Assembly: GCA_002425705.1 (NCBI GenBank)
Contig: DIMT01000001.1
Coordinates: forward strand, 46,221-110,220
Direction: 5' to 3'
Source: Firmicutes bacterium UBA5559
GTDB taxonomy: Bacteria; Bacillota; Clostridia; Peptostreptococcales; Anaerovoracaceae
DNA: 64,000 nucleotides
Both the position numbers and the translations under genes were made by a program. The notes under the pieces were generated by a model that saw only the letters and a program-made list of their open reading frames with translations, was not told the origin of the DNA and did not search any database. Below are positions 20,977-39,001 of the stretch, piece after piece; position 1 is the first letter of the stretch; each line of letters starts with the position of its first letter.

Positions 20977-20979
20977 AAC

Positions 20980-23900
20980 ATGAAAAATCTGATCGAAAGC
21001 AACATCCATTGGAATAAAATAGGCAGCCATCCCAAGGAATCCTATTCCTTTCATCTGGGGAAGGCAAAAATGTCAAAGGACGGTTCAGTTCTGACCCTGG
21101 CGGTGGAACTGAATTTTGTTGTGCCCTATGAGGACATCCTGCGGATCAAGGCCCTGATCATCAACCAGGTTCCGGATTTGGTCAAGGTGGATTTCCAGTT
21201 TCATTACCGGGAAATGATCCTGAGACCAGAGGAGATCCTCCGACACTACATCGAGTATATGATTGAAGAAGTCAACGGGGAATATGCCCCCCTGACCAAG
21301 ACCATCCTGCCGGAGGAATATGCTTTGGAGGGAGACAGCCTCACCATTTACGCCCTGGGAAACCTGGCGGTGGAACAGCTCAATCACCGGGTTTCACCCC
21401 TGTTCCGTCAGCTTTTGGAAGCCAACATGGGACTTTCTCTCCAGGTTCGGTTCGAAAACCACGATGATTCCTATTCCAAAGTTTCCAGTCAGAAAAAAGC
21501 CCTGACAGAAACCGAAGCCCGGGAAATGGCCCAGGTTCAGAAATCAGCGGTAGCTGCTCCGAAGAAATCGCCAGAACCCCAGGAAAAGAGTTGGGGGAAA
21601 AAACGATCCTCCAAGGAAGAACCGGCCTGCGGCAGCCAGATTATGGGGAAACCCTTTGCCGGAGACCCGGATCCCATGCAGAGCCTGAACACCGAATCAG
21701 GAACGGTGGTCATCGAAGGGATCTTGTTCCGAAAGGAATCCCGTACCATCCGCAGCGACAAGAAGCTGGTAACCCTGTTGGTCACCGACAAGACCACCTC
21801 CCTTTGCCTCAAGGCCTTTGTATCTCCCGGTAAATGGGAGGAGATCGACGAACTGCTCAACCCGGGGGACGGCATCCGGGTCCGGGGCATCGTGGAATGG
21901 GACACCTATGAAAATCAGTTGGTGGTTATGGTGAAGGACATTCAGAAGCACCAGAAGGAAGCCAAAACCGACAAGGCAGAGAAAAAACGGGTGGAGCTCC
22001 ATGCCCACACCAAGATGAGCGCCATGGACGGCCTCAATGAAGTGTCGGAGCTGATCCGGACCGCAGCAGCCTGGGGACATCCGGCGGTAGCCATCACCGA
22101 CCACGGGGTAGTACAAGCCTTTCCGGAAGCGCCCAAGGTGGTGAAAAAGAACAAGCTGGACATCAAGGTGATCTACGGTCTGGAAGGTTACCTGCTGGAC
22201 GACCGGGATAAGATCGGAGAAGACGGAACCATTGATTACAAGTCCTCCGGTACCTATCACGTCATCATTTTAGCCCAAAACCAGGAGGGGCTCCGAAACC
22301 TGTACAAGCTGGTTTCCATCTCCCACCTGGATTATTTCTATAAAAAGCCCAGGATTCCCAAATCTGTCCTCGCCGCCCACCGGGAAGGACTGATCATCGG
22401 CTCTGCCTGCGAGGCGGGGGAAGTATATCAGGCGGTTCGGAAGGGAAACCCGGATATTCAGGAAATCGTTGACTTTTATGACTACCTGGAAATCCAACCC
22501 ATCATCAACAATCAATTCCTCATCGACAACGGCTCGGTGAAGGATGAAGAGGAGCTTCGGGACATCAACCGGCGGATCGTCCGTCTGGCAGAGGATGCCG
22601 GAAAACTGGTTGCCGCTACCTGCGATTCCCATTACACCACCCCGGAGGAAGCTTTGTACCGGAAAATCCTCATGGCGGGGCAGGGATACAAGGACATCGA
22701 AGGGGACAAAGGACTGTACCTTCGGACCACCGACGAAATGCTGGAGGAGTTCAGTTATCTGGGCCGGGATGCTGCCTGGCAGGTGGTAGTAGAAAATACC
22801 AATCGGATCGCCGAAATGGTGGAGGACGTCAAACCCATTGCTTCCGGTAAGTTCCCTCCCAAGATCGACCGGGCCGAGGAAATCCTCCGGGAAACCTGCA
22901 TGAAGCGGGCCTGGGAGATGTACGGCAATCCCCTGCCCTATGACGTGGAAAACCGTCTGGAGCGGGAGCTCAATTCCATTATCAACAACGGCTATGCGGT
23001 GATGTACGTTTCCGCTGAGATGCTGGTGAAAAAATCTCTGGAGGACGGTTATCTGGTCGGTTCCCGGGGTTCCGTCGGTTCCTCCTTTGCCGCCACTATG
23101 GCCGGCATCACCGAGGTAAACCCCCTGCCTCCCCACTATATCTGCGGCGGATGCAAGCATTTTGAATGGGGAGACAACAACGAATACGACTGCGGAGTGG
23201 ATATGCCGGAAAAGCATTGCCCGGACTGCGGACTGCTGATGAAACGGGAAGGCTTTGACATCCCCTTTGAAGTTTTTTTAGGCTTCGAAGGAGACAAGGA
23301 GCCGGATATCGACTTGAACTTCGCCGGCGAATATCAGAGCACCGCCCACAAATACGTGGAAGAAATCTTCGGACGGGAAAATGTTTACCGGGCCGGGACC
23401 ATTGGCACCATTGCCAGCAAGACGGCCTATGGCTTTGTTCGCAAGTATTTTGAAGAGCGGGAGCAGAACATCAATAAGTGGGAAATCGAACGGCTGACCG
23501 AATGCTGCACCGGAGTCCGGCGTACCACAGGACAGCATCCCGGTGGAATCATCATTGTCCCCAGGGGTCACGAAATCTATGAATTCTGTCCGGTTCAGCG
23601 ACCGGCCAACGACATGAATACGGACATCATCACCACCCACTTTGACTATCATTCCATCGATGAAAACCTGCTGAAGCTGGATATTCTGGGCCACGACGTG
23701 CCCTCCATGATCCGCCAGCTCCAGGATATGACGGGAGTGGATCCCCTGACCTTGCCTTTAAATGACGATAAGGTCAAGGGCCTGTTCCTCGGCATCAGTT
23801 CCCTGGATATCCAGGAAGAAAACTATAAATATCGCCACGGCAGCTTTGGTATTCCTGAGTTTGGCACCAAGTTCGTTCGGCAGATGCTGGATGACACCAG

Positions 23901-24723
23901 ACCCAGCCGCTTCGGGGACCTGGTCCGGATTTCCGGATTTTCCCACGGTACCGATGTGTGGCTGAACAACGCCCAGGAATTTATCCGAAGCGGAGTAGCC
24001 ACCATGAAGGACGCCATCTCCACCCGGGATGACATTATGAATTATCTGATTCACAAGGGGCTGCCCAACAGCAACGCCTTCAAGATCATGGAAAACGTCC
24101 GGAAGGGGAAGGGCCTGAGCGAAAAGGACATGGAGCTGATGCGGGAGCACGACGTGCCGGAATGGTACATCGATTCCTGCAACAAGATCAAGTACATGTT
24201 TCCCCGGGCCCATGCGGTGGCCTACGTTATGATGTCCTACCGGATCGCTTATTACAAGGTCTATTATCCCAGGGAGTTTTATGCCACTACTTTCACCACG
24301 AAAGTAAATGACTTCGATGCAGAGACTATACTCAAGGGTCCCAAGGCGATTTTGGAAAAGATCGAGTCCATCGAGAACAAGGGGAAGAACGCCACGAAAA
24401 AAGAAGAAGACAGTGTGACGGTCATGGAACTGGCCTATGAAATGCTCTGCCGGGGGTACGACTTTAAGGAAGCATCTTTGGAGCATTCAGACCCGGTCAA
24501 ATTTAAAGTTCTGGAGGATAAGGTGCTGCTGCCCCTGATGGCGCTTACCGGAGTAGGGGAAACCGCAGCCCGGCTGATTGCCGAAGAGCACCGAAAACGG
24601 CCATTCCATTCGGTGGAAGAGATTCAAAAACGGGCACGGGCCAACAAAACCGCCATCGAGGCACTGAAGCAGCATGGTGTATTGACCGGATTGCCGGAAA
24701 CGGATCAGCTCTGTCTCTTTTAG
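20980..24723 (+). CDS. polC: DNA polymerase III alpha subunit, PolC type, apparently lacking the inserted 3'-5' exonuclease domain
   Basis: 1247 aa. It has the PolC N-domains, an OB fold, a PHP domain (VELHAHTKMSAMDG, ITDHGVVQAFPEA, GLEGYL, YHVIILAQNQEGLRNLYKLVS), the Zn finger CGGC...CPDC, and the polymerase core (GSRGSVGSSF, QHPGGIIIVP, KLDILGHD). See the findings for the missing exonuclease insert. Confidence 0.9.
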   Translation: MKNLIESNIHWNKIGSHPKESYSFHLGKAKMSKDGSVLTLAVELNFVVPYEDILRIKALIINQVPDLVKVDFQFHYREMILRPEEILRHYIEYMIEEVNGEYAPLTKTILPEEYALEGDSLTIYALGNLAVEQLNHRVSPLFRQLLEANMGLSLQVRFENHDDSYSKVSSQKKALTETEAREMAQVQKSAVAAPKKSPEPQEKSWGKKRSSKEEPACGSQIMGKPFAGDPDPMQSLNTESGTVVIEGILFRKESRTIRSDKKLVTLLVTDKTTSLCLKAFVSPGKWEEIDELLNPGDGIRVRGIVEWDTYENQLVVMVKDIQKHQKEAKTDKAEKKRVELHAHTKMSAMDGLNEVSELIRTAAAWGHPAVAITDHGVVQAFPEAPKVVKKNKLDIKVIYGLEGYLLDDRDKIGEDGTIDYKSSGTYHVIILAQNQEGLRNLYKLVSISHLDYFYKKPRIPKSVLAAHREGLIIGSACEAGEVYQAVRKGNPDIQEIVDFYDYLEIQPIINNQFLIDNGSVKDEEELRDINRRIVRLAEDAGKLVAATCDSHYTTPEEALYRKILMAGQGYKDIEGDKGLYLRTTDEMLEEFSYLGRDAAWQVVVENTNRIAEMVEDVKPIASGKFPPKIDRAEEILRETCMKRAWEMYGNPLPYDVENRLERELNSIINNGYAVMYVSAEMLVKKSLEDGYLVGSRGSVGSSFAATMAGITEVNPLPPHYICGGCKHFEWGDNNEYDCGVDMPEKHCPDCGLLMKREGFDIPFEVFLGFEGDKEPDIDLNFAGEYQSTAHKYVEEIFGRENVYRAGTIGTIASKTAYGFVRKYFEEREQNINKWEIERLTECCTGVRRTTGQHPGGIIIVPRGHEIYEFCPVQRPANDMNTDIITTHFDYHSIDENLLKLDILGHDVPSMIRQLQDMTGVDPLTLPLNDDKVKGLFLGISSLDIQEENYKYRHGSFGIPEFGTKFVRQMLDDTRPSRFGDLVRISGFSHGTDVWLNNAQEFIRSGVATMKDAISTRDDIMNYLIHKGLPNSNAFKIMENVRKGKGLSEKDMELMREHDVPEWYIDSCNKIKYMFPRAHAVAYVMMSYRIAYYKVYYPREFYATTFTTKVNDFDAETILKGPKAILEKIESIENKGKNATKKEEDSVTVMELAYEMLCRGYDFKEASLEHSDPVKFKVLEDKVLLPLMALTGVGETAARLIAEEHRKRPFHSVEEIQKRARANKTAIEALKQHGVLTGLPETDQLCLF

Positions 24724-24762
24724 TCCTATAATTCTCTTTTTGACACTTTTAATGTCTTTTAA

Positions 24763-24791
24763 TTGACATTTTTTGCTTTATTATCTACAAT
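24763..24791 (+). promoter_or_regulatory. SigA-type promoter of the SARP-like regulator gene
   Basis: TTGACA (24763-68), 17 nt spacer, TACAAT (24786-91). Confidence 0.6.
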
Positions 24792-24813
24792 GGGAGCAAG
24801 GGAGGGAATGCCC

Positions 24814-26049
24814 ATGCAAGAGGAATACAAAATCACCTTTTTTAAAGAATTTTCCCTGAGCCAGGGAGGCCATCTGATTTTAGAAGGCCCACTGAAAAGC
24901 AGTAAGGTTTTTCAACTGCTTCAGTATTTTCTTGCCCATCGTTCCAAATCCTTTACGAAAGAGCACCTGATCGAGCTCCTTTACGGGGATGAATTTGTGG
25001 ATAATCCCACCAATGCGCTGAAAATCATCGTTCACCGGCTCCGGAAGCAGATCCTGTCCCTGGGACTGCCGGAAATGGAATACATCGTCAACTACAATGG
25101 AAAATACGGATGGAATCCGGAAATCCCCTGTCAGGTCGACATTGAGATCTTTGAACATACCATGAAGCGGGCCCTCCATCCCAATGCACCGGAGGAGGAG
25201 TCCCTTAAGCTGATGCTGGAGGCCATCCACCTGTATCAGGGGCCTTTCCTGGGCAACAGCCTGACGGAAAGCTGGGTGATTCCCATGCGGGTCCGGTACG
25301 AGGAAGCCTATAAACACTTGATAGGTCGAGCCTGCCAGCTGATTCGGAAGAAGGAGGACTTCATCCTGCTTCACTATATCGCGTCCCATGGACTGGAAAT
25401 CTATCCGATGGATGAGGATTTCTCCCGGGAAAAGATATTTGCTTTGCATCAATTGGGCAAGACCAAGGAAGCCATCGGGGAGTATAACCGGATCGTGGAC
25501 CTGATTTTTAACGAATACGGCGTCAGCCCGTCGGATGAACTGCAGTCCCTTTACGATAAGGTAGCGGCAACGACCCAGAAAAGCGCCATCAATGTGGATG
25601 AAGTTAAAAATTTCCTGGAAGAAGGGGAAGATGATGATGGGGCTTATTTCACCAATTATCAAAACTTTGCAGACAGCTATCGTTTTTTAGTTAGAGGGCT
25701 GGAGCGAAGCGGTCTTTCCGCATTCCTGATGCTCTGCACCATGGTCAACAAACAAGGAAAGCTGCTGGATGAGGAACTCCAGCTGGCCCACGCTTCCGAT
25801 GCGCTGAAGACAGCCTCCAAGGCTTCTTTAAGAAGAGGAGACCTTTATACCCGGTACAGCCCTTCCCAGTATCTCTATCTGCTGATCGGCATCAACCAGG
25901 AAAACTGCAGCATCGTTTTTGACCGTATCGAAAAGCATTTCCGGAAGGAGTTCCGGGGAAATCAGGTCAACCTGAAATACAAGGTGGTTTCTGCAGCCGA
26001 CATTAAAAAGCTCTTTGGCGACAAAAGGGGCCAACAGGATGCAAAATAA
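24814..26049 (+). CDS. SARP-like transcriptional regulator: OmpR-type winged helix + BTAD + degenerate GGDEF-like C-terminal domain
   Basis: ATG 24814 lies 7 nt after AGGGAGGGA. The N-terminus (FLAHRSKSFTKEHLIELLYGDEFVDNPTNALKIIVHRLRKQI) is a Trans_reg_C-like wHTH. The middle (DIEIFEH...LYQGPFL...ALHQLGKTKEAIGEYNRIVDLIFNEYGVSPSDELQSLYDKV) matches BTAD. The C-terminal part (about 145 aa) follows the GGDEF fold pattern, with RRGD-LYTRY-SPSQY where RxxD-x5-GGDEF would be. Confidence 0.7.
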   Translation: MQEEYKITFFKEFSLSQGGHLILEGPLKSSKVFQLLQYFLAHRSKSFTKEHLIELLYGDEFVDNPTNALKIIVHRLRKQILSLGLPEMEYIVNYNGKYGWNPEIPCQVDIEIFEHTMKRALHPNAPEEESLKLMLEAIHLYQGPFLGNSLTESWVIPMRVRYEEAYKHLIGRACQLIRKKEDFILLHYIASHGLEIYPMDEDFSREKIFALHQLGKTKEAIGEYNRIVDLIFNEYGVSPSDELQSLYDKVAATTQKSAINVDEVKNFLEEGEDDDGAYFTNYQNFADSYRFLVRGLERSGLSAFLMLCTMVNKQGKLLDEELQLAHASDALKTASKASLRRGDLYTRYSPSQYLYLLIGINQENCSIVFDRIEKHFRKEFRGNQVNLKYKVVSAADIKKLFGDKRGQQDAK

Positions 26050-26083
26050 ACCGGATTCTGATTCAATATGACACAATTTCGAC

Positions 26084-26111
26084 AAAACGCCTCGAAAAGG
26101 GGCGTTTTTTT
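26084..26111 (+). terminator. Rho-independent terminator after the regulator gene
   Basis: AAAACGCCTC-GAAAA-GGGGCGTTTT stem followed by a T-run. Confidence 0.85.
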
Positions 26112-26129
26112 ATTGCGCAAAACCCGCAG

Positions 26130-26186
26130 GTTTCAACATGCTACTGGTTTTTTGAAACTGGCAGTGAAACTAAAACGGCATATGAT
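26130..26186 (+). promoter_or_regulatory. Candidate activator-dependent promoter of adhesin A (TGAAACT direct repeats plus -10)
   Basis: TGAAACT (26153-59), N5, TGAAACT (26165-71), N9, TATGAT (26181-86). An inverted copy GGTTTCA lies at 26130-36. The same geometry recurs at 29392..29425. Confidence 0.55.
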
Positions 26187-26265
26187 AGTTAAACAAAAGG
26201 GATGAGTTTCTCCCAGTCACGAAACAGAGACATACTTGATTTTATGAGAAGGAAGGAGAGGTATT

Positions 26266-28554
26266 ATGAGTAGTAAAAGAAAAAGCTGGATGAGGGTGGT
26301 GGCCTTCACCATAATGCTCACCCTGGTCTTGATGACCGGAGCCACTGGGCTGGTAGTAGCCGAAGAGGGAGGCTTCGAAGGACCGCCTCTGGAGGAGAAT
26401 GGAATTATCCAGTCGTCGGGGTCGGAAGATCCATCCGGTGATGACGGTTCTGGTAAAATGGATGAGGGATTGCCTGAGGGAGAAGGGCAAACAAGAACCA
26501 TGAGTTTTTTTAAACCGGAAAAACCACCCAAGCTAGAGATTAAATTAGAAAAGTGGGTTAATCCGGATAAGGTTTTCTTTCAAGATGACATGGTGACTTT
26601 TTTCTTCAAGGTTACAAATAAGAGTGAAAGAAGCCTTAGGAATGTGGTTCTTGTGGATGAAGATTTAGGCCTTGTAATTACGATTGGTGAATTAAGTAAA
26701 GAGAGGTGGCATGGATCGGTCTACACAACAGAGGTGGCTGTTAAGCTGGATCCTGACAAATGGGATGGGAATAAGTACATCAATGAGGCGTCAGTATCCG
26801 GCACAGCAAGGGTAGCGGACAATGATATTATTGTATCAGATTCAGCCTGGGCAAAAGTAGAATTGAAACCGATCATTGGATTCGCCAAAGAAGCGGATCG
26901 TGAAACTGTTTTCTTTAAGGACTCCACGGTAACCTATACCTTTACGGTAACAAATATGAGTAATAAGCCAATTGCGGATGTGATGATTATTGATCCTGCT
27001 ATTGGCCTTGAAATTGATGCAGGCTCATTGGGAATTCATGGAAAGGGCAAAACCTTCACTACAAAAGTAGCGGTTGATCTAAGTGAGAATTTATGGGACG
27101 GCAATTCATTTAACAATACTGCCACGGTTCAGGGAACCGTTCCCTGGGGCGAAGGGACCAGATCAGTCAGTGCCGATGCTTCGTATACCGTGAAGTATCA
27201 GGCTCCTTTGACCTTAGAAAAGACGGTTGATAAAAGCACAGTTAATTTCAAGGACGAAAAGGTAACTTATACATTCAAGGTTAAAAATAACCTTTGGTGG
27301 GATCTCCAAAATGTAAAGGTTTATGATGAAACCATCGATGCAATTCTGGATTTCGGCAAAGTACGAAAGGGACAATGGGAAACTAGGACATTTGCATTTG
27401 ATTTGACAAATGCAGAATGGGATGGGGATCAATTCATCAACACTGCAAGAGTGGAAGCTCCTTTTATGAGAGGAGATACACCGGTAACTCTTTCGGCAGT
27501 TGATACGGCTGCTGTAACTTACGTACCACCCATGACCCTGGAAAAATCAGTAGATCCTGGAACTGTATACTCACAAGATGGAATTGTAAACTATACCTTC
27601 AAAGTGTGGAATAATCTTTCGGACAATACGATTAAGAATGTAGTTCTGACGGATACTCTCTTGGATTTAACGGTGAATGCCGGGGACATCAAAGCAAAGA
27701 GTAAATGGAATAAAGGCTATTATACCACCACTGTTGCTATTGACTTGTCTTTAATCCCTGAAGATTCCTGGGATGGCAATCAATTGATTAATGAAGCTAC
27801 AGCCATGGGCTGTTACGAAAAAATCAAATGGGCTCCGAGAGGAAACGAGGGAGACTTCCAAACGATGAAACATTGGTCTCCTCCTACGGAATGCATCACG
27901 TTGACAGCAGTGGACACGGCTACCCTGATCTATGATCCGACCACATTGACGATTAAAAAAGATGTTCCCAACGTAACCGATTCTGCAGCAGCCTTTGATG
28001 TTCTGATTTCGTGGGAAGAAGAATGGGTCTATGATGAGGATTCAGGAGACAATGAAATCCCCCAATACCGTACCATGGTGATGAATACCACCACGAAGTC
28101 TATCCAGGGTGTAATTTCGGAATTGGAGCCCTTTGTCATGGATGCGGTTCCTGGAGTTTTGTACACAGTGGCAGAAACTACAAAAGCAGGCTATACCACA
28201 TCAGAAACCTCTTTGCAGATTACCCTGGAGCCAGGTGAAGATGGAGTGATCACCTTTGTGAACACCAAGGATGTCATAGAGGAAGAAAGCTCTGGCGGTG
28301 GCGGCACCAATCAAGGTGGCAGCAGTGGTGGCGGTGGAGATACGGATACCAATACCATAGCTACGGTTCCTGACGGTCAGGTACCCTTAGCCCAGGATCC
28401 TGTTACTGTTGAAACATTAGCCGATTTACCCATTCCGCTAGCTGATGTTCCTCAAACCGGAAACAATGCATTGCTGAATCTCTGGTGGATTTTGCTAGCT
28501 TTGTCCGGATTTGGAATCCTGGTTGTCGTAAATAGGAAACCGGAAAAAATTTAA
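26266..28554 (+). CDS. Sortase-anchored surface protein A (four DUF11/CARDB-like repeats, a Cna-B/prealbumin-like domain, and a VPQTG sorting signal)
   Basis: Signal peptide MSSKRKSWMRVVAFTIMLTLVLMTGATGLVVA. Four modules of about 105 aa each end in WDG(N/D)xxxNxAxV. A Gly-rich linker follows. The C-terminus is PIPLADVPQTG, then a hydrophobic span, then RKPEK. The gene is AT-rich compared with its flanks. Confidence 0.85.
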   Translation: MSSKRKSWMRVVAFTIMLTLVLMTGATGLVVAEEGGFEGPPLEENGIIQSSGSEDPSGDDGSGKMDEGLPEGEGQTRTMSFFKPEKPPKLEIKLEKWVNPDKVFFQDDMVTFFFKVTNKSERSLRNVVLVDEDLGLVITIGELSKERWHGSVYTTEVAVKLDPDKWDGNKYINEASVSGTARVADNDIIVSDSAWAKVELKPIIGFAKEADRETVFFKDSTVTYTFTVTNMSNKPIADVMIIDPAIGLEIDAGSLGIHGKGKTFTTKVAVDLSENLWDGNSFNNTATVQGTVPWGEGTRSVSADASYTVKYQAPLTLEKTVDKSTVNFKDEKVTYTFKVKNNLWWDLQNVKVYDETIDAILDFGKVRKGQWETRTFAFDLTNAEWDGDQFINTARVEAPFMRGDTPVTLSAVDTAAVTYVPPMTLEKSVDPGTVYSQDGIVNYTFKVWNNLSDNTIKNVVLTDTLLDLTVNAGDIKAKSKWNKGYYTTTVAIDLSLIPEDSWDGNQLINEATAMGCYEKIKWAPRGNEGDFQTMKHWSPPTECITLTAVDTATLIYDPTTLTIKKDVPNVTDSAAAFDVLISWEEEWVYDEDSGDNEIPQYRTMVMNTTTKSIQGVISELEPFVMDAVPGVLYTVAETTKAGYTTSETSLQITLEPGEDGVITFVNTKDVIEEESSGGGGTNQGGSSGGGGDTDTNTIATVPDGQVPLAQDPVTVETLADLPIPLADVPQTGNNALLNLWWILLALSGFGILVVVNRKPEKI

Positions 28555-28562
28555 AGACTAAG

Positions 28563-28584
28563 GGGGCTGCCATCCGGCGGCCCC
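28563..28584 (+). promoter_or_regulatory. GC-rich intercistronic stem-loop between adhesin A and its sortase
   Basis: GGGGCTGCC-ATCC-GGCGGCCCC, 9 bp with one G-U pair. The T-tail is weak (TGTTTC), so it looks like an attenuator or stability element rather than a full terminator. Confidence 0.5.
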
Positions 28585-28606
28585 TGTTTCAAAGGAGGTG
28601 GTTACG

Positions 28607-29356
28607 ATGAAGAGGATCTGGATGATCCGCCTGGGAATTGTGTTGATTCTTCTAGCCTGTATTCTCTTGCTTTATTCCTTGTTTGGACCGGGCAACAACG
28701 GGAAGGAAGAGTTCCAGACATCTTTGCAGGAAGAGGAGCTGCCAATATCGGCCGATGGGGAGCAGCCCCTCTACCCGGCTCCTTCTGTAACCATTGACTT
28801 TGATGGGTTACTGGCTATCAACGATGAGACAACCAGTTGGATCTGGATTCCCGATTCGCCTATCACTTACCCGGTGATGCAGGGGCTGGACAATCAGAAG
28901 TACCTGACCCGCTCCTATAAGGGGACTTATGACCGGAATGGCAGTGTATTCATGGATTACCGATGTCAGCCGGATTACAGCAGCAGCCACACCATTCTCT
29001 TTGGCCATAATATGCTGACGGAAGATATTTTCGGCACACTGGAGCGCTATAAGGACCTTGAATACCTCAACAGACATTCTCTGATCTATATCCTGAAACC
29101 GGAGGAATACCAAGTGTACGAAGTCTTCTCCATTCACGGGACGGATGCTACCGGAGAAACCTACCGGGTGAATTTTGAAACGCCAGACCACTTTCGGCAG
29201 TACCTGGAAGAAATGAAGGAGCTATCCATCCATCCTTTGGGGCCTGATCCGGAATCGAAAGACCAGATACTGACCCTTTCTACTTGTACTTCTCACGGAA
29301 ATAAGAACGATCGTTTCGTTGTCCAGGCCGTTTTGCAGGAAACTGTAAAACTTTAA
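28607..29356 (+). CDS. srtB: Class B sortase
   Basis: ATG 28607 lies 8 nt after AGGAGG. It has an N-terminal TM anchor, TILFGHNM (catalytic His), LTLSTCTSHG (catalytic Cys in TLSTC), and DRFVVQA (Arg). Confidence 0.85.
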   Translation: MKRIWMIRLGIVLILLACILLLYSLFGPGNNGKEEFQTSLQEEELPISADGEQPLYPAPSVTIDFDGLLAINDETTSWIWIPDSPITYPVMQGLDNQKYLTRSYKGTYDRNGSVFMDYRCQPDYSSSHTILFGHNMLTEDIFGTLERYKDLEYLNRHSLIYILKPEEYQVYEVFSIHGTDATGETYRVNFETPDHFRQYLEEMKELSIHPLGPDPESKDQILTLSTCTSHGNKNDRFVVQAVLQETVKL

Positions 29357-29391
29357 AATAGAGTTCAAAATGTTTCATAATTCTGAGATGC

Positions 29392-29425
29392 TGAAACCTG
29401 TATTGAAACCTGAAACCGTTATAGT
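29392..29425 (+). promoter_or_regulatory. Candidate activator-dependent promoter of the small-protein/adhesin B operon (TGAAACC repeats plus -10)
   Basis: TGAAACC (29392-98), N5, TGAAACC (29404-10), N9 containing a third TGAAACC (29411-17), then TATAGT (29420-25). Confidence 0.55.
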
Positions 29426-29487
29426 AAAAATAAGAAGAAAACAAGTTGTTTGAAATGAACGGAAATTCAACGAAGGAGGTGGTAAGT

Positions 29488-29991
29488 TTGCAGCCAAGCA
29501 ATATCCGGATGTTTTCCCGGAATATTATTTGTAACTGCGTCAACCAATGTGGACCTAATGGCATACAAGGAGAGCTGCACCACCTTTACTCCGAAGAACC
29601 GATCCGATACCGGGACGCATTTGAAATGCTGATCCAGATGGATAAGTTCTATGATAACCTGAATTTTCCGATGGCTTCCACCGAAACCCGATCTTTTATC
29701 AAAAGGAAGCCCAGTCAAAATAGGAAAGAGATGATAAAAATGGAGCAGGATGAAAAACTATTAAAGGTTAAGGGCAGCAAGGGCACATTCCTGATACAGG
29801 TACAATACCGACAGAACGCCACCTGGCAAGGCAAGGTGGTCTGGGCAGAAGAAAACAAGACACAATATTTCAGAAGCGCACTGGAACTAATGAAACTGAT
29901 TGATGGAGCTCTGAACAAGGGCAACGAGGAAGCGACAATAGAATTCGAAGAAAGTGATAATCCAAAAGATAAGAAATACGCTACCAGCTAA
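29488..29991 (+). CDS. Hypothetical cytoplasmic protein with internal duplication, unknown function
   Basis: The ORF track gives 29446..29991. The best SD is GAAGGAGGTG, which favours TTG 29488, with ATG 29509 as an alternative. There is no signal peptide. Two halves share the motif [YF]R[DS]A[FL]E[ML][LM]xx[MI]D (EPIRYRDAFEMLIQMD versus TQYFRSALELMKLID). Confidence 0.5.
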   Translation: MQPSNIRMFSRNIICNCVNQCGPNGIQGELHHLYSEEPIRYRDAFEMLIQMDKFYDNLNFPMASTETRSFIKRKPSQNRKEMIKMEQDEKLLKVKGSKGTFLIQVQYRQNATWQGKVVWAEENKTQYFRSALELMKLIDGALNKGNEEATIEFEESDNPKDKKYATS

Positions 29992-30031
29992 AAGGGAGGT
30001 TATCAAGAGCGTATGGGAAAGGAGAATGGAG

Positions 30032-31831
30032 ATGAACATTCAGACAAAGAGGTGGGCAAGGCCCCTGGCGCTTTTCATAGCGCTGACAATGGTGATGATG
30101 TACTCCTTTGGGGGAGTGGTGTTTGCATCAATTAATGATGTTAGAGTTCATTATCACGGACCAAGTGATGATGGAGTTGTAGTTGTAATTACGACTGTAT
30201 CATCAGAAGGTGCTATTGATCAAACCTTTACAGCAGAAGCTAAGAGACATAAAAAGAGTAGTCATTACGATGGAAAATTTTCTCCAAGCATTGACCAAGT
30301 TTTATCGAATGGCGATAAACTCATTGATGAAGGTGTAGTTACAAGAGCATACACAACAATAAATGGTATTTACACAGAATTAACAGTTGATCATAGTTCA
30401 GCTATCGGAAATAACTCGGCAAATATTAAGGTTGGACCACCACCAACTGCAAAAGTTTATAACCTAATGATAACCAAGACGGTAGACAAGCCAGTAGTTC
30501 CCCTTGATGGCGCTGTTAAGTTTACTATTACTGTTACAAATATCGGGAATACATTAGTGAGCGGCGTAGTTGTAACAGACGAAATTCCTGCAGGCTTATT
30601 GATAACGGCCACTTATTCAGCAGTTGGAACATTTGCAGGCGATGTCTGGACAATCGGTGATTTAGCGAGTGGTCAACAAGTAACATTAGAGATTGATGCC
30701 ATTACTACTGATGTAGATGAGATCACCAATACTGCCACTGTAAGTTTTGATGGTGATGATGTTGATGAGGATGATAACACAGCAAGTGCGACAGTAGATG
30801 TTTTAGTACCATATGACTTATCTCTTACAAAGTCAGTAAATCCTGGATCTGTAGGTATAAGTGAAGAAGCTCTTTTCACTATTAAAGTAGAGAACAAGGG
30901 ATTCTATGAAGCAACTAATGTTGTTGTCAAGGATGTATGGCCAGATGGGCTTGAATTTATCGGTGCAACATCCAGCGATGCTATACAGTTCAATGCTGAG
31001 GATATGACATGGACCCTTGGAAGTTTAGCTCCTGGAGCAACTAAAACAATTACTTTATCAGGTATTTCAGCAGTAGCCGATGATTATACGAATACTGCAT
31101 CTGTTACCTTTAGCGGAATCGACCAGAATCCAAATGATAACTCTGATACAGCAACGCTTAAAGTGCTTCTGGAAAGAGACCTTGGAATCACAAAGGTTGC
31201 AGCACCTACCAATATTCTGCTTAATGAAAGCACAGTATTTACAGTGACTATAACAAATAATGGTACTGAAACTATTAATAATATTTTCGTTGAAGATGTT
31301 ATGGAAGCTGGATTAAGTATTTCGGCAATCGGCTCAGATGATTTTAAAGATGGAATATGGGATGTCGGAACTCTGGAATCCGGAGAAAGCAAGATTTTAA
31401 CAATAGCCGCAATTGGAACAACAGTTGGTTCCCTTCAGAATCAGGTTGAGATTGTGACTCTGGGTGATGGCAATAACGAAGTAATTGAATATGTTCCATT
31501 TGAAGATGATAACCAGTCTAACAACTCTGAAAAAGCTACCGTAACAGTCTCCGCAGGAGGCGGTGGAGGTGGCGGCGGCGGTGGAACCGGTGGAGGCGGT
31601 GGTGGTGGAACCACTATCCAGGAAACTACTCCTCCATTAACCAATATCCCCGACGGAGAAACTCCGTTAGTAGAAGCCCCGGAAGTAATGCTTGAAGAGC
31701 AGCCCATTCCGCTGGCAGACGTTCCCCAGACTGGTGACAACACCAACATCTGGTTGCTGCTGGCCCTGATGATGGGATCCGGAGCAGGAATCGTCCTCCT
31801 GGGAAGGCGAAAAGAAACAGTTGAAAAGTAA
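30032..31831 (+). CDS. Sortase-anchored surface protein B (three DUF11 repeats, a poly-Gly linker, and a VPQTG sorting signal)
   Basis: ATG 30032 lies 7 nt after GGAG. Signal peptide MNIQTKRWARPLALFIALTMVMMYSFGGVVFA. The canonical DUF11 repeat pattern is present (L.ITKTVDKP...F.ITVTN.G...V.V.D..P.GL......G...WT.G.L..G....L......NTA.V). The linker is G10-T-G7. The C-terminus is PIPLADVPQTG, then a hydrophobic span, then RRKE. Confidence 0.85.
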   Translation: MNIQTKRWARPLALFIALTMVMMYSFGGVVFASINDVRVHYHGPSDDGVVVVITTVSSEGAIDQTFTAEAKRHKKSSHYDGKFSPSIDQVLSNGDKLIDEGVVTRAYTTINGIYTELTVDHSSAIGNNSANIKVGPPPTAKVYNLMITKTVDKPVVPLDGAVKFTITVTNIGNTLVSGVVVTDEIPAGLLITATYSAVGTFAGDVWTIGDLASGQQVTLEIDAITTDVDEITNTATVSFDGDDVDEDDNTASATVDVLVPYDLSLTKSVNPGSVGISEEALFTIKVENKGFYEATNVVVKDVWPDGLEFIGATSSDAIQFNAEDMTWTLGSLAPGATKTITLSGISAVADDYTNTASVTFSGIDQNPNDNSDTATLKVLLERDLGITKVAAPTNILLNESTVFTVTITNNGTETINNIFVEDVMEAGLSISAIGSDDFKDGIWDVGTLESGESKILTIAAIGTTVGSLQNQVEIVTLGDGNNEVIEYVPFEDDNQSNNSEKATVTVSAGGGGGGGGGGTGGGGGGGTTIQETTPPLTNIPDGETPLVEAPEVMLEEQPIPLADVPQTGDNTNIWLLLALMMGSGAGIVLLGRRKETVEK

Positions 31832-31858
31832 GTACGGTAAAGTATAATTAAAGATGTG

Positions 31859-31890
31859 TAAGGGTTACCTTCGGGTAACCCTTATTTATT
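31859..31890 (+). terminator. Rho-independent terminator/attenuator between adhesin B and sortase 2
   Basis: 11-bp stem TAAGGGTTACC/GGTAACCCTTA with a TTCG loop, followed by TTTATT. Confidence 0.75.
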
Positions 31891-31962
31891 AGAAATTGTG
31901 TCATTTGGCCTACATTGCCAAAAGACCGCCAACTGACAGACCTGCTTACAGAGGTGGTATTT

Positions 31963-32727
31963 GTGAAAAAAATTATTTTAATCGTATTAATTTGCGTATT
32001 TATCGGCTCCGGCCTGATGCTGGCGGGAACGCTGCTGGAGTACAAACAGGGGCAGGATCTTTATGAGGCTGCTGCGGAGCAGGTTATTCGTCCGGAGAAG
32101 CCTGAGGCCGAAGAGGAGCCGGATGGCCCGGCTGCTCCAGTTCCCCCTGCCATTAATTTTGAGTTGTTATCGTCCATCAGCCCCGATTCGGTGGGTTGGA
32201 TCTGGATACCCGATTCGGAGATCAGTTACCCCTTGGTGCAGGGCCGGGACAATCAGTTTTATTTGACCCGGACCTATGATGGGGGGCACAACAAGCTGGG
32301 AAGCATCTTTCTGGATTACCGGATTCCGGGGGACTTTAGCGGCAGAAACACCATCATCTACGGGCACAACATGAAAAGCGATGCCATGTTCGGCACCCTG
32401 GAAAAATTCCGGGATCAGACTTTTACCGATGCCCGGCCCCAGTTCTATATCCTCCGGGAGGAGGGGGTCTATCGATATCAGATTTTTTCCGCTTATGTCA
32501 CCGATGCCTTGAGCGATACCTACACCTACCAGTTTGGGAATGATGCCGCTTATGGCAAGTATCTGGAAAAGATTACAAATCTGTCAGACATTACACCGCC
32601 TCAATCCGATATCACACCGCCGAAAGGCCCGGACATTGGCACCCCGATCGTCACCCTGTCCACCTGTACCAGTACCGGAAGGCAGCTGGATCGGTTCGTG
32701 GTTCACGGTTTTCTGATTTCGGAGTAG
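31963..32727 (+). CDS. srtB: Class B sortase (second copy)
   Basis: GTG 31963 follows GAGGTGG. It has a TM anchor, TIIYGHNM, VTLSTCTSTG, and DRFVVHG. It is a paralog of the gene at 28607..29356. Confidence 0.85.
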   Translation: MKKIILIVLICVFIGSGLMLAGTLLEYKQGQDLYEAAAEQVIRPEKPEAEEEPDGPAAPVPPAINFELLSSISPDSVGWIWIPDSEISYPLVQGRDNQFYLTRTYDGGHNKLGSIFLDYRIPGDFSGRNTIIYGHNMKSDAMFGTLEKFRDQTFTDARPQFYILREEGVYRYQIFSAYVTDALSDTYTYQFGNDAAYGKYLEKITNLSDITPPQSDITPPKGPDIGTPIVTLSTCTSTGRQLDRFVVHGFLISE

Positions 32728-32790
32728 CAAAGATTTTAATTTTGTGCTATGATAAAGGACAAAAGTGAAAAAATCATACAGGAGGAAAGC

Positions 32791-34101
32791 ATGCAGGAAA
32801 ACAGGATATGGAGTCCGGAAGAAACCCTGGACAGGGAGCAGTTCCGGGACATACAAAGCAAACGATTGAAAGAAATGGTTCAGCGGGTCTATGATTCCGT
32901 GCCCCATTACAAAAAGAAATTTGACACGATGGGTCTGTCTCCGGCGGATATTCAGTCTGTGGATGACCTGTCCAAACTTCCCTTTACCACCAAGCTCGAC
33001 TTTCGGGACAATTACCCCTACGGGTTGTTTGCTGTACCCCAGAAGCAGGTGGTGAGAATCCATGCTTCCTCCGGAACCACCGGAAAGCCGACAGTAGTTG
33101 GTTATACAAAAAACGATATGGAAATGTGGAAGGAAATGATCGCCAGGCTGGTCACCATGGCCGGCGTCACCGATGAAGATGTGGCACAGATTTCCTTCGG
33201 ATACGGATTATTTACAGGGGCCTTCGGTCTCCACCAGGGCCTGGAGCACGTGGGAGCCACAGTGATTCCCATGTCCAGCGGCAATACTCGTAAACAGATC
33301 ATGGTCATGCAAGACTTCGGCACCACGGCTCTGATCAGCACCCCTTCCTATGCCCTCCATATGGCGGAAATCGCCAAAGAAATGGGCATCGACCCGAAGA
33401 AGGACCTGAAACTGAAGTGGGGACTATTTGGGGGCGAAGGATCCACCGAAGCCATGCGCCGGGAAATCAATGAAGCCTGGGGTTTGTTTGCCACGGAAAA
33501 TTATGGCATGAGCGAGCTGATCGGGCCGGGAGTTTCCGGTGAATGCCTGGCCCTCAAAGGGATGCACATCAACGAGGACCATTTCTTTCCGGAAATCATC
33601 GACCCGGAAACCGGTGAAGTGCTGCCGCCGGGATCCGTGGGAGAGTTGGTCATTACGACTCTTTCCAAAGAAGCCCTGCCCATCATCCGGTACCGGACCA
33701 GCGACATTACCTCTTTGCATTATGAAAAATGTGATTGCGGCAGGACTACCGTCCGAATGGCAAAAATTTCCGGCCGTTCCAACGATATGCTGATTCTGGG
33801 GGGAGTTAATGTATTCCCCTCCCAAATCGAAGAAGTCCTGTTCAACGTGGACGGTATCGGGCCCCATTATCAGATTAAGGTTTACAAGAAAGGCCATCTG
33901 GATCGGATTGAAGTGGACGTGGAACTGGTCAACGCCGATCTGCTGGATTCCTTCAGCCAGATCGAAAACCTGAACCAGACCATCCGGCAGCGACTCCGAA
34001 CCGTGCTGGGCATCGATGCGAAAGTCAATATCATGCAGCCAAGGACCCTGCAGCGTTTCGAAGGGAAAGCCAAGCGGGTCATCGATCTGAGGGAGGAATA
34101 A
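32791..34101 (+). CDS. paaK: Phenylacetate-CoA ligase family (aryl-acetate-CoA ligase), copy 1
   Basis: ATG 32791 follows GGAGG. HASSGTTGKPTVVGYT (AMP-binding P-loop), YGMSELIGPGV, RYRTSD, and GRSNDMLILGGVNVFPSQIE are present. Confidence 0.85.
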   Translation: MQENRIWSPEETLDREQFRDIQSKRLKEMVQRVYDSVPHYKKKFDTMGLSPADIQSVDDLSKLPFTTKLDFRDNYPYGLFAVPQKQVVRIHASSGTTGKPTVVGYTKNDMEMWKEMIARLVTMAGVTDEDVAQISFGYGLFTGAFGLHQGLEHVGATVIPMSSGNTRKQIMVMQDFGTTALISTPSYALHMAEIAKEMGIDPKKDLKLKWGLFGGEGSTEAMRREINEAWGLFATENYGMSELIGPGVSGECLALKGMHINEDHFFPEIIDPETGEVLPPGSVGELVITTLSKEALPIIRYRTSDITSLHYEKCDCGRTTVRMAKISGRSNDMLILGGVNVFPSQIEEVLFNVDGIGPHYQIKVYKKGHLDRIEVDVELVNADLLDSFSQIENLNQTIRQRLRTVLGIDAKVNIMQPRTLQRFEGKAKRVIDLREE

Positions 34102-34103
34102 AA

Positions 34104-34520
34104 ATGGGAATCAAACAATTATCGATTTTTATTGCCAATGAAGCAGGGACCCTGGCCGATGTTACCCGGATCTTCCGGGAACATGAAATCGACATACGGG
34201 CCATCTCCGTTTCCGATACCGTGGATTACGGAATCCTGCGGGTGGTGGTCAGCGAGCCGGAACGGGCCGTGGAAGAACTGGCTAAAGAGGGAATCGTATC
34301 CAAACTCAGCGAGGTCCTGGCCGTAGATCCGGAAGACCGACGGGGCAGCTTGAATGACATCTTCACGCTGCTGGGAGACAACGGCATCAACATCGACTAT
34401 ATCTATTCTTTTCTGGTTCGGGAGGACGGGGCCCAGCTTTTTGTCATAAAAGTGACAGATCAGCAGAAGGCCCAGGAACTGTTGATGGCAAATGGTGTGC
34501 GAATCATAAAAAATATCTGA
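34104..34520 (+). CDS. ACT domain-containing protein (tandem ACT), copy 1
   Basis: 138 aa. LSIFIANEAGTLADVTRIFREHEIDIRAISV plus a second ACT-like half. It lies 3 nt after paaK copy 1. Confidence 0.75.
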   Translation: MGIKQLSIFIANEAGTLADVTRIFREHEIDIRAISVSDTVDYGILRVVVSEPERAVEELAKEGIVSKLSEVLAVDPEDRRGSLNDIFTLLGDNGINIDYIYSFLVREDGAQLFVIKVTDQQKAQELLMANGVRIIKNI

Positions 34521-34527
34521 TTTTTTG

Positions 34528-34556
34528 TTGACAATAACAAAAAATACCGGTAGAAT
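34528..34556 (+). promoter_or_regulatory. Consensus SigA promoter driving the T-box leader
   Basis: TTGACA (34528-33), 17 nt spacer, TAGAAT (34551-56). Confidence 0.8.
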
Positions 34557-34569
34557 AGGAATAACTTCA

Positions 34570-34812
34570 TAGCAAAAGCGATGACAGGGTAAAGTAAGAT
34601 GATCCGGCGGATTACAGAGAATCGGCAGTGCTGAGAGCCGACAGAAGCAGACATCCCAAGTTCCCCCTTGAGCTGACCGGCTGAACCGATAGTAGGCCGT
34701 TCCGGGTTCTCCCGTCACAGAGATAAGGATTCATGGAGTCCTGAGTGGCCGTAAGGCAATAAGAGTGGTACCGCGGGCTTCCCGTCTCTTAGGAGATTGG
34801 AAGCCTTTTTTT
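34570..34812 (+). promoter_or_regulatory. T-box riboswitch leader (probable Phe/UUC specifier) with terminator
   Basis: K-turn AGCGATGA (34577-84) pairs with TGAGCT (34669-74). AGTA is at 34593-96 and the AG bulge AGAGA at 34616-20. The distal loop is AGTGCTGAGA. The T-box sequence AGAGTGGTACCGCG is at 34762-75. The terminator is GGCTTCC...GGAAGCC plus T7 (34776-34812). Confidence 0.85.
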
Positions 34813-34862
34813 GTTCGGGAACCGGCGTGGCCGGAAATTGTTGGAATAAAGGAGAATGAACC

Positions 34863-36161
34863 ATGATTTGGAATGAGCCGAAAGAATGTATGAGCAGGGA
34901 TGAGCGGACGGCAGAGCAGAGCCAGCGTCTGAAAGAGACAGTGAACCGGGTCTATCATAATGTGGCCTTTTATCGGAAAAAGATGCAGGAACTGGGCCTG
35001 GAACCGGGAGACATCAAAGGCATCGAAGACATCCATAAGCTGCCCTTTACTACCAAGAATGATCTGCGGGAAAACTACCCCTTCGGATTGTTTGCTGTGC
35101 CCAAAAGCGAAATCGTCCGGGTCCACGCCTCCTCCGGCACCACCGGAAAGCCCATCGTGGTAGGATACACCCGAAAAGACATCGACCTGTTCTCTGAAGT
35201 AGTAGCCAGAGCCTATTGCTGCGCTGGTGCTACCAAAGACGACATCGTCCAGATCGCCTATGGCTATGGCCTATTCACCGGTGGCCTGGGGATGCATTAC
35301 GGTGCAGAAAAGCTGGGGGCAGCAGTGGTTCCCATCTCTGGAGGCAATACGGAAAAGCAGCTGGCCCTGATGCAGGATTTCGGCAGTACGATTCTGGCCT
35401 GCACCCCCTCCTATGCGGCCTTCCTTTCAGAAGCCATCGAAGAAGCGGGAATCGATAAAAACCAGCTTCAGCTGAAAGCCGGTATCTTCGGGGCAGAACC
35501 CTGGAGCAACGAGATGAGGGCCAAGATCGAAGAGGGCTTAGGCATCACCGCCTATGACATCTACGGACTCAGTGAGATCATCGGACCGGGCGTCTCCTGC
35601 AGCTGTTATGTTCAGGAGGGACTCCACGTGGCGGAGGATCATTTCTATCCAGAGATCCTGGATCCGGAAACCCTGAAGGCAGTCACCCCGGGCACCACCG
35701 GCGAACTGGTCTTCACCACCATTACCAAGGAAGGCATGCCCCTGCTCCGGTACCGGACCCGGGATCTGGCCAGCCTCAATTACGATGCCTGCGCTTGCGG
35801 GCGGACCAATGTGCGGATGTCCAAGATTCAGGGACGTTCCGACGATATGCTCATTATTCGGGGGGTCAATGTATTCCCCTCCCAGGTGGAAAGCGCTCTC
35901 CTGGAAATCGAAGAAGCCAAACCCCATTACATGCTGATCGTAGACCGGGTGGGAACCATGGACACCCTGGAGATTCAGGTTGAAATCGATGATAGATATT
36001 TCAGCGATGAAATGGTAGAATTAAATAAAGTGCGGCAGAAAATCAAACACAAGGTGGAAAGTATTCTGGGAATCAGCGTCAACATCAACCTGGTGGAGCA
36101 CAAAACCATTGCAAGAAGCGAAGGAAAAGCCAAGAGAGTCATCGATAGGCGAAAGATATAG
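34863..36161 (+). CDS. paaK: Phenylacetate-CoA ligase family, copy 2 (T-box controlled)
   Basis: 432 aa with HASSGTTGKPIVVGYT, YGLSEIIGPGV, RYRTRD, and GRSDDMLIIRGVNVFPSQVE. By eye it is about half identical to copy 1. Confidence 0.85.
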   Translation: MIWNEPKECMSRDERTAEQSQRLKETVNRVYHNVAFYRKKMQELGLEPGDIKGIEDIHKLPFTTKNDLRENYPFGLFAVPKSEIVRVHASSGTTGKPIVVGYTRKDIDLFSEVVARAYCCAGATKDDIVQIAYGYGLFTGGLGMHYGAEKLGAAVVPISGGNTEKQLALMQDFGSTILACTPSYAAFLSEAIEEAGIDKNQLQLKAGIFGAEPWSNEMRAKIEEGLGITAYDIYGLSEIIGPGVSCSCYVQEGLHVAEDHFYPEILDPETLKAVTPGTTGELVFTTITKEGMPLLRYRTRDLASLNYDACACGRTNVRMSKIQGRSDDMLIIRGVNVFPSQVESALLEIEEAKPHYMLIVDRVGTMDTLEIQVEIDDRYFSDEMVELNKVRQKIKHKVESILGISVNINLVEHKTIARSEGKAKRVIDRRKI

Positions 36162-38997: not shown

Positions 38998-39001
38998 TTC
39001 A

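Follow-up and report, generated by a model that had tools for sequence, protein, structure and literature searches.

A stretch of 64,000 nucleotides from Firmicutes bacterium UBA5559 (Clostridia; Anaerovoracaceae), corresponding to positions 46,221 to 110,220 of contig DIMT01000001.1 (assembly GCA_002425705.1) and here called the window, contains a locus of six co-directional open reading frames (ORFs), all on the plus strand and spanning 24.8-32.7 kb. They encode a transcriptional regulator, two adhesins (A and B), two class B sortases (SrtB1 and SrtB2) and a small cytoplasmic protein (Table 1). The regulator, which joins the DNA-binding half of a SARP to a degenerate GGDEF domain, is the main subject here. 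An initial annotation made from the DNA sequence alone had described the locus as seven consecutive genes. The ORF list gives six, the difference being a counting error, and with this and other corrections the description of the locus as a whole is confirmed. The longest ORF of the regulator opens with a TTG at 24763, which is also the -35 hexamer of the regulator's own promoter. The start codon is therefore ATG 24814, the start chosen in the initial annotation.

Table 1. Features of the adhesion locus. Positions are those of the window.
Feature	Position	Strand	Basis
Regulator's own promoter, sigma-70-type, TTGACA-17-TACAAT	24763..24791	+	11/12 consensus matches
Regulator, 411 amino acids	24814..26049	+	ORF, Pfam, AlphaFold2, Foldseek
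Degenerate GGDEF-fold domain of the regulator	25627..25998	+	HMM profiles, Foldseek, family alignment
Inhibitory-site motif RxxD, here RRGD with R340 and D343, five residues ahead of the position equivalent to GGDEF	25831..25842	+	
R371, third inhibitory-site residue, 31 residues after R340	25924..25926	+	translation, alignment, conservation
Intrinsic terminator 3' of the regulator gene	26084..26115	+	10-bp stem then T run
Promoter P1, adhesin A operon	26153..26186	+	pattern search; without good -35 hexamer
Adhesin A, 762 amino acids	26266..28554	+	ORF, Pfam/NCBIfam
SrtB1, class B sortase 1, 252 amino acids	28598..29356	+	TIGR03064
Promoter P2, small-protein/adhesin B operon	29392..29425	+	pattern search; conserved layout
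Small cytoplasmic protein, 167 amino acids, two homologous beta3-alpha repeats	29488..29991	+	
Adhesin B, 601 amino acids; alternative start 30032	30026..31831	+	ORF, Pfam/NCBIfam
Hairpin and U-rich tail between adhesin B and SrtB2	31860..31890	+	-20.8 kcal/mol, z-score -5.8
SrtB2, class B sortase 2, 254 amino acids	31963..32727	+	TIGR03064

The regulator consists of an OmpR/PhoB-type winged helix (residues ~1-100), a BTAD domain (residues 108-250), a linker helix and the degenerate GGDEF domain (residues ~272-395). The first two match the Pfam models Trans_reg_C (E 2e-9) and BTAD (E 2e-14), and a winged helix followed by a BTAD is the domain order that defines SARPs. Compared with solved structures, the profile of the regulator family finds AfsR (E 5e-15), EmbR (E 3e-10) and diguanylate cyclases (E 4e-6 to 6e-7). 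An AlphaFold2 model of the regulator (pLDDT 86, pTM 0.72) gave the same picture in Foldseek searches, its N-terminal half matching AfsR (8k60, E 2e-11) and EmbR (E 4e-11) with a TM score of ~0.7 on the target. The winged helix and BTAD named in the initial annotation are thus well supported. Its fold and the geometry of the promoters discussed below place the regulator in the SARP family, and its C-terminal modulator makes it a large SARP.

When it comes to the C-terminal domain, the family was more informative than the single protein. A search of 5.8 billion proteins gave 50 full-length relatives of the regulator, and 32 of the 43 that were aligned match PF00990 at E <= 0.1, the best with E 2.7e-6. 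The profile of the C-terminal domain matches solved diguanylate cyclases (4urg, E 6e-7; 3ign, E 9e-6), and in the AlphaFold2 model the secondary structure elements of the C-terminus follow each other in the GGDEF order alpha-beta-alpha-beta-beta-alpha-beta. Foldseek found more than 30 GGDEF structures for this half of the model (E 5e-6 to 1e-3, TM ~0.55 on the target). The regulator family thus has the GGDEF fold, and the suspicion of a degenerate GGDEF-like C-terminus, which a lack of such similarity in profile and structure comparisons would have contradicted, is borne out. A literature search for SARP or BTAD proteins with a GGDEF domain, and for transcription factors with degenerate GGDEF domains in Clostridia, gave no description of the fusion, in agreement with the initial annotation, in which it was not recognised as a described regulator class. 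The family is real, widespread in Clostridia and apparently uncharacterised.

In the register given by the hidden Markov model (HMM) alignment, the segments LRRGD, LYTRY, SPSQY and LYLL of the regulator fall on vRRsD, vvaRY, GGDEF and tiLL of the cyclases (4urg, 3ign). SPSQ[YF] takes the place of the GGDEF signature in the family, the window protein having SPSQY, and none of 122 family members has GG[DE]EF at the position of the active site. The metal-binding aspartate is replaced by Cys308 in the window regulator and by Cys, Phe or Leu across the family, and the family has not conserved the active-site residues for binding the guanine and the phosphates of the substrate GTP either. As both the GG[DE]EF motif and the metal-binding aspartate are absent, the regulator is not a diguanylate cyclase.

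Diguanylate cyclases can also have an inhibitory site (I-site) for their product, cyclic di-GMP (c-di-GMP). In PleD this site is made up of R359 and D362 of an RxxD motif, R390, and R313 of the neighbouring domain, and two GGDEF domains become cross-linked by the intercalated dimer of c-di-GMP that it binds (PMC7288161). The regulator has the RxxD motif, and the spacing from R340 to R371 is exactly that from R359 to R390 in PleD. R298 is an arginine before strand 1, where R313 of PleD sits, an equivalence that is based on alignment position only. In the alignment of the 122 family members, with identities to the window protein down to 27% in one aligned subset, R298 is found in all 122, and R340, D343 and R371 each occur in 121 of them. 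The sequence features of an I-site receptor, namely RxxD, the downstream arginine and an arginine equivalent to R313, are thus all found in the regulator. Because every catalytic residue has been lost while the whole product-binding quartet has been kept, we infer that the dead GGDEF domain is a c-di-GMP sensor that acts through the I-site. This combination of catalytic loss and a retained quartet characterises I-site receptors, among them PelD, PopA and SgmT.

Two promoters of a common, activator-type design precede the adhesin operons. P1 reads TGAAACT-ggcag-TGAAACT-aaaacggca-TATGAT, and P2 reads TGAAACC-tgtat-TGAAACC-tgaaaccgt-TATAGT, with a third copy of the heptamer at 29411-29417. Neither of them has a usable -35 hexamer. 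The common layout, two TGAAACY heptamers separated by five nucleotides and followed after nine by the -10 element, was pointed out in the initial annotation and is hardly accidental, as TGAAACY-N5-TGAAACY-N9-TAnnnT has exactly two matches in 64 kb (at 26153 and 29392) where 0.04 are expected. Even when two mismatches are allowed in the 34-nt pattern, P1 and P2 remain the only matches. The P2 layout is also found upstream of the small-protein gene in five orthologous loci, L081, L082, L083, L001 and L002, the regulators of which are 59%, 52%, 51% and, for the last two, 44-46% identical to that of the window. In an alignment of the seven promoters of these six loci, the flanks have diverged, but neither the two heptamers nor the -10 element shows any variation.

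The promoters recognised by SARPs contain direct repeats at a spacing of 11 or 22 bp, with 8 bp between the 3' repeat and the -10 element, and two SARP protomers bind them side by side and substitute for the -35 contact (PMC10936776). P1 and P2 display the same features, with tandem repeats about one helical turn apart at a period of 12 bp, a 9-bp distance between the repeats and the -10 element, and no usable -35 hexamer. The promoter logic is the same as that of the published SARP promoters, with a slightly different geometry. Among the 80 loci of the neighbourhood analysis described below, exact TGAAAC repeats are common to the closest clade only. Upstream of the small-protein genes of more distant members TGAGACC, TGTAAT(G), AGTAAC or TTGCGAA are found at the same 11-12-bp period, as would be expected if the specificity co-evolves with the recognition helix.

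Further repeats were also seen. In P1 (26129-26135), in P2 (29371-29377) and in two orthologous promoters (L081 at ~11317 and L082 at ~8138), the heptamer also occurs in inverted orientation, as (G/T)GTTTCA (TGAAAC read as its reverse complement), 21-26 bp upstream of where the direct repeats begin. This inverted copy could be a third binding site involved in looping or repression, or be due to chance. A different direct repeat with a 12-bp period, GTAATGC, precedes a single-repeat paralog of the small protein in the Lachnospiraceae loci L014, L015, L026, L042, L056 and L072.

The gene neighbourhoods of the regulator relatives were analysed using one genome per GTDB species, which gave 240 relatives, the best 80 of which were studied. 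All of these loci are from Clostridia except one, found in a metagenome-assembled genome labelled Flexilinea (L065), and the hosts include Blautia producta, Roseburia inulinivorans, Lacrimispora, Hungatella, Fusicatenibacter, Christensenella and Oscillospiraceae. The regulator of Roseburia inulinivorans (L013) reads as two ORFs. In 55 of the 80 loci, including those of R. inulinivorans and of Blautia producta DSM 2950 (L015), a small-protein homolog lies beside the regulator, mostly as the next gene downstream and on the same strand, and it is often accompanied by an extra single-repeat paralog of 60-80 amino acids. About 25 of the loci have no small-protein gene within 10 kb. The linkage in 55 loci means that the regulator and the small protein form a conserved core. 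A linkage of the regulator to sortase and adhesin genes had been anticipated in the initial annotation, and a linkage does exist, but the partner is the small protein. A class B sortase is found within 10 kb in only 12 of the 80 loci and was therefore rejected as a conserved partner of the regulator.

The genes found together with this core encode different types of surface structures. Some loci encode secreted proteins of giant size in which VWA, SpaA, Cna_B or GBS104-like tip-pilin domains are found, and others contain TasA/camelysin-like sets together with a SipW-like signal peptidase, sets similar to type IV pili and type II secretion systems (T2SS-E, T2SS-F, a DUF4860 pseudopilin-like protein and a transglutaminase lipoprotein), or sortase-anchored DUF11 adhesins. 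In eight loci the regulator/small-protein pair lies amid housekeeping genes, and phmmer found no homologs of the window adhesins in L001-L080. Judged from the gene content, the cargo of the regulon is adhesive surface structures in general and not sortase B substrates specifically. The same classes of surface structures are under c-di-GMP control elsewhere, an example being the sortase substrates that C. difficile regulates by riboswitches (PMC6447587, PMC7865049).

In the close relatives the gene order is polC, regulator, small protein, DUF11 adhesin and class B sortase. The adhesin A/SrtB1 module of the window is thus an insertion between the regulator and its partner that has acquired the same promoter, and the ancestral layout, as read from these loci, is regulator, small protein, adhesin and sortase. 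Reciprocal look-ups starting from three small-protein homologs showed a BTAD regulator (412-428 amino acids) upstream and a giant adhesin directly downstream in two cases. In the third case two giant Flg_new surface proteins lie upstream, and there is no regulator within 8 kb. Canonical GGDEF diguanylate cyclases are encoded within ~5-6 kb of the regulator in three loci (L037:16247-17182, L064:14248-15714 and L065:16138-17622). All three have an intact DxD...GGDEF, and two of them also have RxxD.

According to Pfam and NCBIfam, adhesin A contains a signal peptide, four DUF7507/CLIPPER_2 domains and DUF11/CLIPPER stalk repeats, while adhesin B has a signal peptide, three DUF11/CLIPPER domains and an LPXTG anchor. 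CLIPPER_2 and CLIPPER are the new names of DUF7507 and DUF11, which are described as domains of stalks with isopeptide bonds (PMC12617251). The PIPLADVPQTG sorting signal that had been reported for both adhesins is present at 28429-28461 in adhesin A and at 31703-31735 in adhesin B. Their scores of 33.4 and 35.2 bits with NF033073 (doubled motif LPXTG) are below the 48-bit cut-off and denote a resemblance only. Adhesins among the cargo of other loci end in (I/V/T)PLAD(V/A)P(Q/P)T(G/D) (L004:11908-21055, L081:11941-13995 and L082:8525-10669), some of them with PQTD, and the PLAD-xPxT[GD] tail may be a sorting-signal variant for which there is no model.

SrtB1 and SrtB2 score 155.8 and 176.1 bits with TIGR03064, above the equivalog cut-off of 153.75 for class B sortases. 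The catalytic His (FGHNM), Cys (LSTCTS) and Arg (DRFVV) are present in SrtB1, and both enzymes have the motifs GHNM, LSTCTS and DRFVV. SrtB2 starts at a GTG preceded by the ribosome-binding site GAGGTGG, and its ortholog in the closely related contig L084, described below, also has 254 amino acids. The two sortases are 37% identical and the two adhesins can barely be aligned, and a recent duplication of the two modules was therefore rejected. The strong hairpin just in front of SrtB2 (31860-31883) is probably a partial terminator that would lower the transcription of the sortase relative to that of the adhesin. A near-consensus promoter-like sequence, TTGAAA-16-TATAAT, is found at 31821-31848 inside the 3' end of adhesin B, so that the level of SrtB2 may be set in the region 31821-31890, by partial termination or by an internal promoter.

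The small protein has no signal peptide and is built from two homologous beta-beta-beta-alpha repeats. An hhalign comparison of its N- and C-terminal halves gave a probability of 92% (E 6e-7), which agrees with the earlier view of it as a small cytoplasmic protein with a duplicated domain. The AlphaFold2 model has a pLDDT of 76, with ~90 for the domains, and the C-terminal repeat contains the invariant motif YRQNxTWQG...FRSxLEL..L.D. The family is large, with 3100 clusters at 50% identity (E <= 1e-3), or 2262 at E <= 1e-10, and it was matched by no Pfam or NCBIfam model. No relative was found among PDB sequences, and the best Foldseek hit had an E-value of 0.14, which is not significant. A PUR-alpha/PUR-Whirly-like fold (E 0.27, TM 0.24-0.27) was rejected and is a lead only, and a resemblance to the major histocompatibility complex platform was rejected as non-significant. 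Among 1.84 billion representatives the domain fusions were uninformative, as only tandem copies were seen. About ten members in addition to P0184, P0189 and P0203 have a length of ~290 amino acids and consist of two tandem two-repeat units, i.e. four beta3-alpha repeats, with no other domain.

Because the small protein is linked to the regulator independently of the cargo and is a promoter target in the close relatives, it would belong to the regulatory core and not to the cargo. By a weak analogy to AfsS, which is encoded downstream of AfsR, it might be a feedback or co-factor protein. It may equally well be a dedicated leader or chaperone protein for operons encoding giant adhesins. A single-repeat paralog of 63-81 amino acids is found in Lachnospiraceae, for instance in Blautia producta DSM 2950 (L015:11834-12133), and in the Blautia loci L014, L015 and L026 the single-repeat paralog also precedes a giant LPxTG adhesin of 1600-2000 amino acids. 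It seems that operons for giant adhesins recurrently have this form as their leader gene.

A contig from JGI metagenome 3300022177 (L084) is ~89-90% identical in DNA sequence to positions 20001-36000 of the window. Its regulator gene (L084:5275-6510) is broken by an in-frame stop that replaces a glutamine codon (...FALH*LGKTKEA...), and the module is therefore dispensable in at least some strains. The passenger region of adhesin B, equivalent to 30119-31568 of the window, has given way to a sequence unrelated to it, but its signal peptide and its anchor, PIPLADVPQTG, have been retained. These differences suggest on/off variation between strains and an exchange of adhesin cassettes.

Two features of the window lie outside the locus. 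A T-box leader (Rfam RF00230, 106.5 bits) is found at 34572-34792, upstream of the second of two tandem pairs encoding a PaaK-like AMP-ligase and an ACT-domain protein (32749-34520; 34863-36161 onward). Positions 39001-40000 display a spike in AT-skew of 0.405 at a GC content of 0.59. By synteny with L084 this is probably the rimP-nusA-infB region, and the spike is perhaps due to a low-complexity N-terminus of initiation factor 2.

Taken together, the domain architecture, the pattern of conservation, the conserved cis-elements and the genomic linkage can be accommodated in one model. We propose, with a probability of about 0.55, that the locus is a self-contained adhesion module controlled by a large SARP activator whose dead GGDEF domain acts as a c-di-GMP receptor. 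The regulator would be made constitutively from its own consensus sigma-70 promoter, as read in the sequence. When the level of c-di-GMP rises, an intercalated dimer would bind to R340-x-x-D343 and R371. By analogy to the product inhibition of PleD, R298 of a second protomer would then complete a cross-link of two GGDEF-like domains. The cross-link would favour two SARP domains lying side by side on the TGAAACY heptamers, where they would replace the missing -35 element. RNA polymerase would be recruited as it is by AfsR at the afsS promoter, by means of a repeat geometry that is seen in the window and a binding that is presumed from it. Two units would thereby be switched on, one encoding adhesin A and SrtB1 and the other the small protein, adhesin B and SrtB2. 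The class B sortases would anchor the DUF11/CLIPPER-stalk adhesins to the cell wall by the common PLAD-VPQTG signal. The small protein, as a direct promoter target in all close relatives, would be a feedback or co-factor element of the regulatory core. A protein-based second-messenger switch for sortase-anchored adhesins had been put forward in the initial annotation. Its first half has gained from the invariant I-site and the loss of catalysis, with c-di-GMP binding as a prediction, while its second half was too narrow, as the cargo is not sortase-specific.

Several observations weigh against this model. The C-terminus of the window regulator taken alone (residues ~262-411) gives no significant match to the GGDEF models of Pfam or NCBIfam, and the window protein itself reaches a GGDEF domain only with E 0.06. 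Due to this weak value it is the profile of the family and the structure model that carry the case for a GGDEF domain. The I-site residues could have been kept for a structural or protein-protein role. The period of 12 bp and the distance of 9 bp to the -10 element differ from the 11 bp and 8 bp of the actinobacterial SARPs, and the stop codon in the regulator gene of L084 shows that the module varies between strains. The 64-kb window contains no gene for a diguanylate cyclase or a c-di-GMP phosphodiesterase, and a c-di-GMP metabolism in this organism is therefore an assumption based on its relatives. For the small protein a role is read from the genomic linkage, and from the kinds of data presented here we infer this role as well as the identity of the ligand, the binding to DNA and the direction of the regulation.

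In an alternative explanation, the GGDEF-like domain of the SARP-type activator would be a ligand-independent dimerisation or scaffold domain, or a docking site for the small protein, which would then be the real modulator, acting as an anti- or co-activator. All catalytic and GTP-binding residues have been lost, the small protein accompanies the regulator in the majority of the loci and usually in the same operon, as would an interacting partner, and AfsR/AfsS is a precedent for a SARP gene followed by that of a small protein. However, a pure scaffold is not expected to keep, in 121-122 of 122 members, exactly the I-site quartet at a spacing like that of PleD when the rest of the nucleotide pocket drifts, and in about 25 of the 80 loci there is no small-protein gene within 10 kb. 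We therefore consider this explanation unlikely. That the domain senses another nucleotide, such as GTP, (p)ppGpp, cyclic GMP-AMP (cGAMP) or another cyclic dinucleotide, and thus ties the adhesins to nutrition or stress, appears quite improbable. GGDEF domains are able to bind other nucleotides, hybrid "Hypr" GGDEF domains make cGAMP, and structures of PleD with ppGpp and pppGpp are among the fold matches (9g85, 9g86), but what remains in the family is the product-binding quartet of the I-site, and not the guanine- and phosphate-binding residues of the GTP site.

It is very improbable that the locus is an ordinary accessory island of adhesins and sortases next to an unrelated regulator, with a promoter motif that was spread by duplication of the module. 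The GC content of 0.40-0.43 in the adhesin region, compared to ~0.52 in the flanks, fits such an island, and so does the exchange of the adhesin B passenger in the close relative, which is typical of mobile cassettes. Still, the heptamers and their spacing are identical in two modules that are not recent duplicates, the layout has been kept beside orthologous regulators that are only 44-59% identical, and it would hardly occur by chance in the window.

The consequences of the c-di-GMP receptor model would extend beyond this locus. It is a tentative, broader proposal that Clostridia have widespread, undescribed c-di-GMP effectors in the form of SARP activators that read the I-site of a dead GGDEF domain, with an obligate partner of a new fold carrying the YRQNxTWQG motif, and that these serve as a portable adhesion switch placed ahead of sortase adhesins, giant VWA/SpaA adhesins, TasA-like fibres and type-IV-like pili. 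Protein transcription factors responding to c-di-GMP are well known in Proteobacteria and Actinobacteria, while Firmicutes are thought to use mainly riboswitches and a few enzyme-linked receptors. The family, here called SARP-GGDEF*, is found in at least 240 species representatives of Clostridia (among them Blautia, Roseburia, Lacrimispora, Christensenella and Oscillospiraceae) and would fill this gap. If the proposal is true, these would to our knowledge be the first class of c-di-GMP-dependent transcription factors described in Firmicutes and the first case of a GGDEF I-site driving the dimerisation of a DNA-binding domain. Cross-linking by the I-site would be a simple and reusable route to ligand-dependent DNA binding. 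The family would also explain when gut commensals display adhesins, pili and fibres. The 34-bp promoter element and four residues that can be altered by point mutation make the hypothesis directly testable, and a large unannotated family of small proteins has been flagged as a probable regulatory partner or adhesin-operon leader.

The closest parallel with respect to the regulated genes is found in C. difficile, where CD2831 and CD3246 are class B sortase substrates with (S/P/V)PxTG-type signals and an expression tied to c-di-GMP (PMC6447587, PMC7865049). There the signal is read by c-di-GMP riboswitches in the 5' leader. No such riboswitch was detected in the 64-kb window, as claimed already in the initial annotation, and a protein activator and promoter repeats are found instead.

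With respect to the DNA-binding half, the regulator resembles AfsR of Streptomyces coelicolor and EmbR of M. tuberculosis, which have the same N-terminal combination of an OmpR-type winged helix and a BTAD. In common with such large SARPs are the tandem repeats that replace the -35 element ~8-9 bp from the -10 element, the extra C-terminal domain, which is presumed to modulate the activity, and, as for AfsR and afsS, a small-protein gene immediately downstream as a direct target. The small protein is, however, unrelated to AfsS, and the C-terminal module is a degenerate GGDEF domain and not NOD-TPR as in AfsR or FHA as in EmbR. The host belongs to the Clostridia instead of the Actinobacteria, the period of the repeats is 12 bp and not 11 bp, and the regulon consists of surface adhesins and not of antibiotic clusters.

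The C-terminal half resembles PelD, PopA, SgmT, PssE of Listeria and YdaK of Bacillus, all of which have a dead GGDEF domain with RxxD and a downstream arginine as the presumed ligand site, and an output in biofilm or surface structures. Ligand binding has been proven for these five proteins, while for the SARP-GGDEF* family it is predicted. Their coupling is to polysaccharide synthases, to adaptors of proteolysis or to a histidine kinase, and none of them is directly fused to a DNA-binding domain. Transcription activators of adhesins that depend on c-di-GMP are known in MrkH, VpsT and FleQ of Proteobacteria and BldD of Actinobacteria. The sensors of these proteins are PilZ, REC, AAA+ or the C-terminal domain of BldD, and none of them uses a GGDEF I-site. 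The predicted order of events, from a second messenger by way of a DNA-binding protein to the transcription of adhesin or fimbria genes, is nevertheless the same, as illustrated by MrkH, a c-di-GMP-dependent activator of type 3 fimbriae (PMC3161979).

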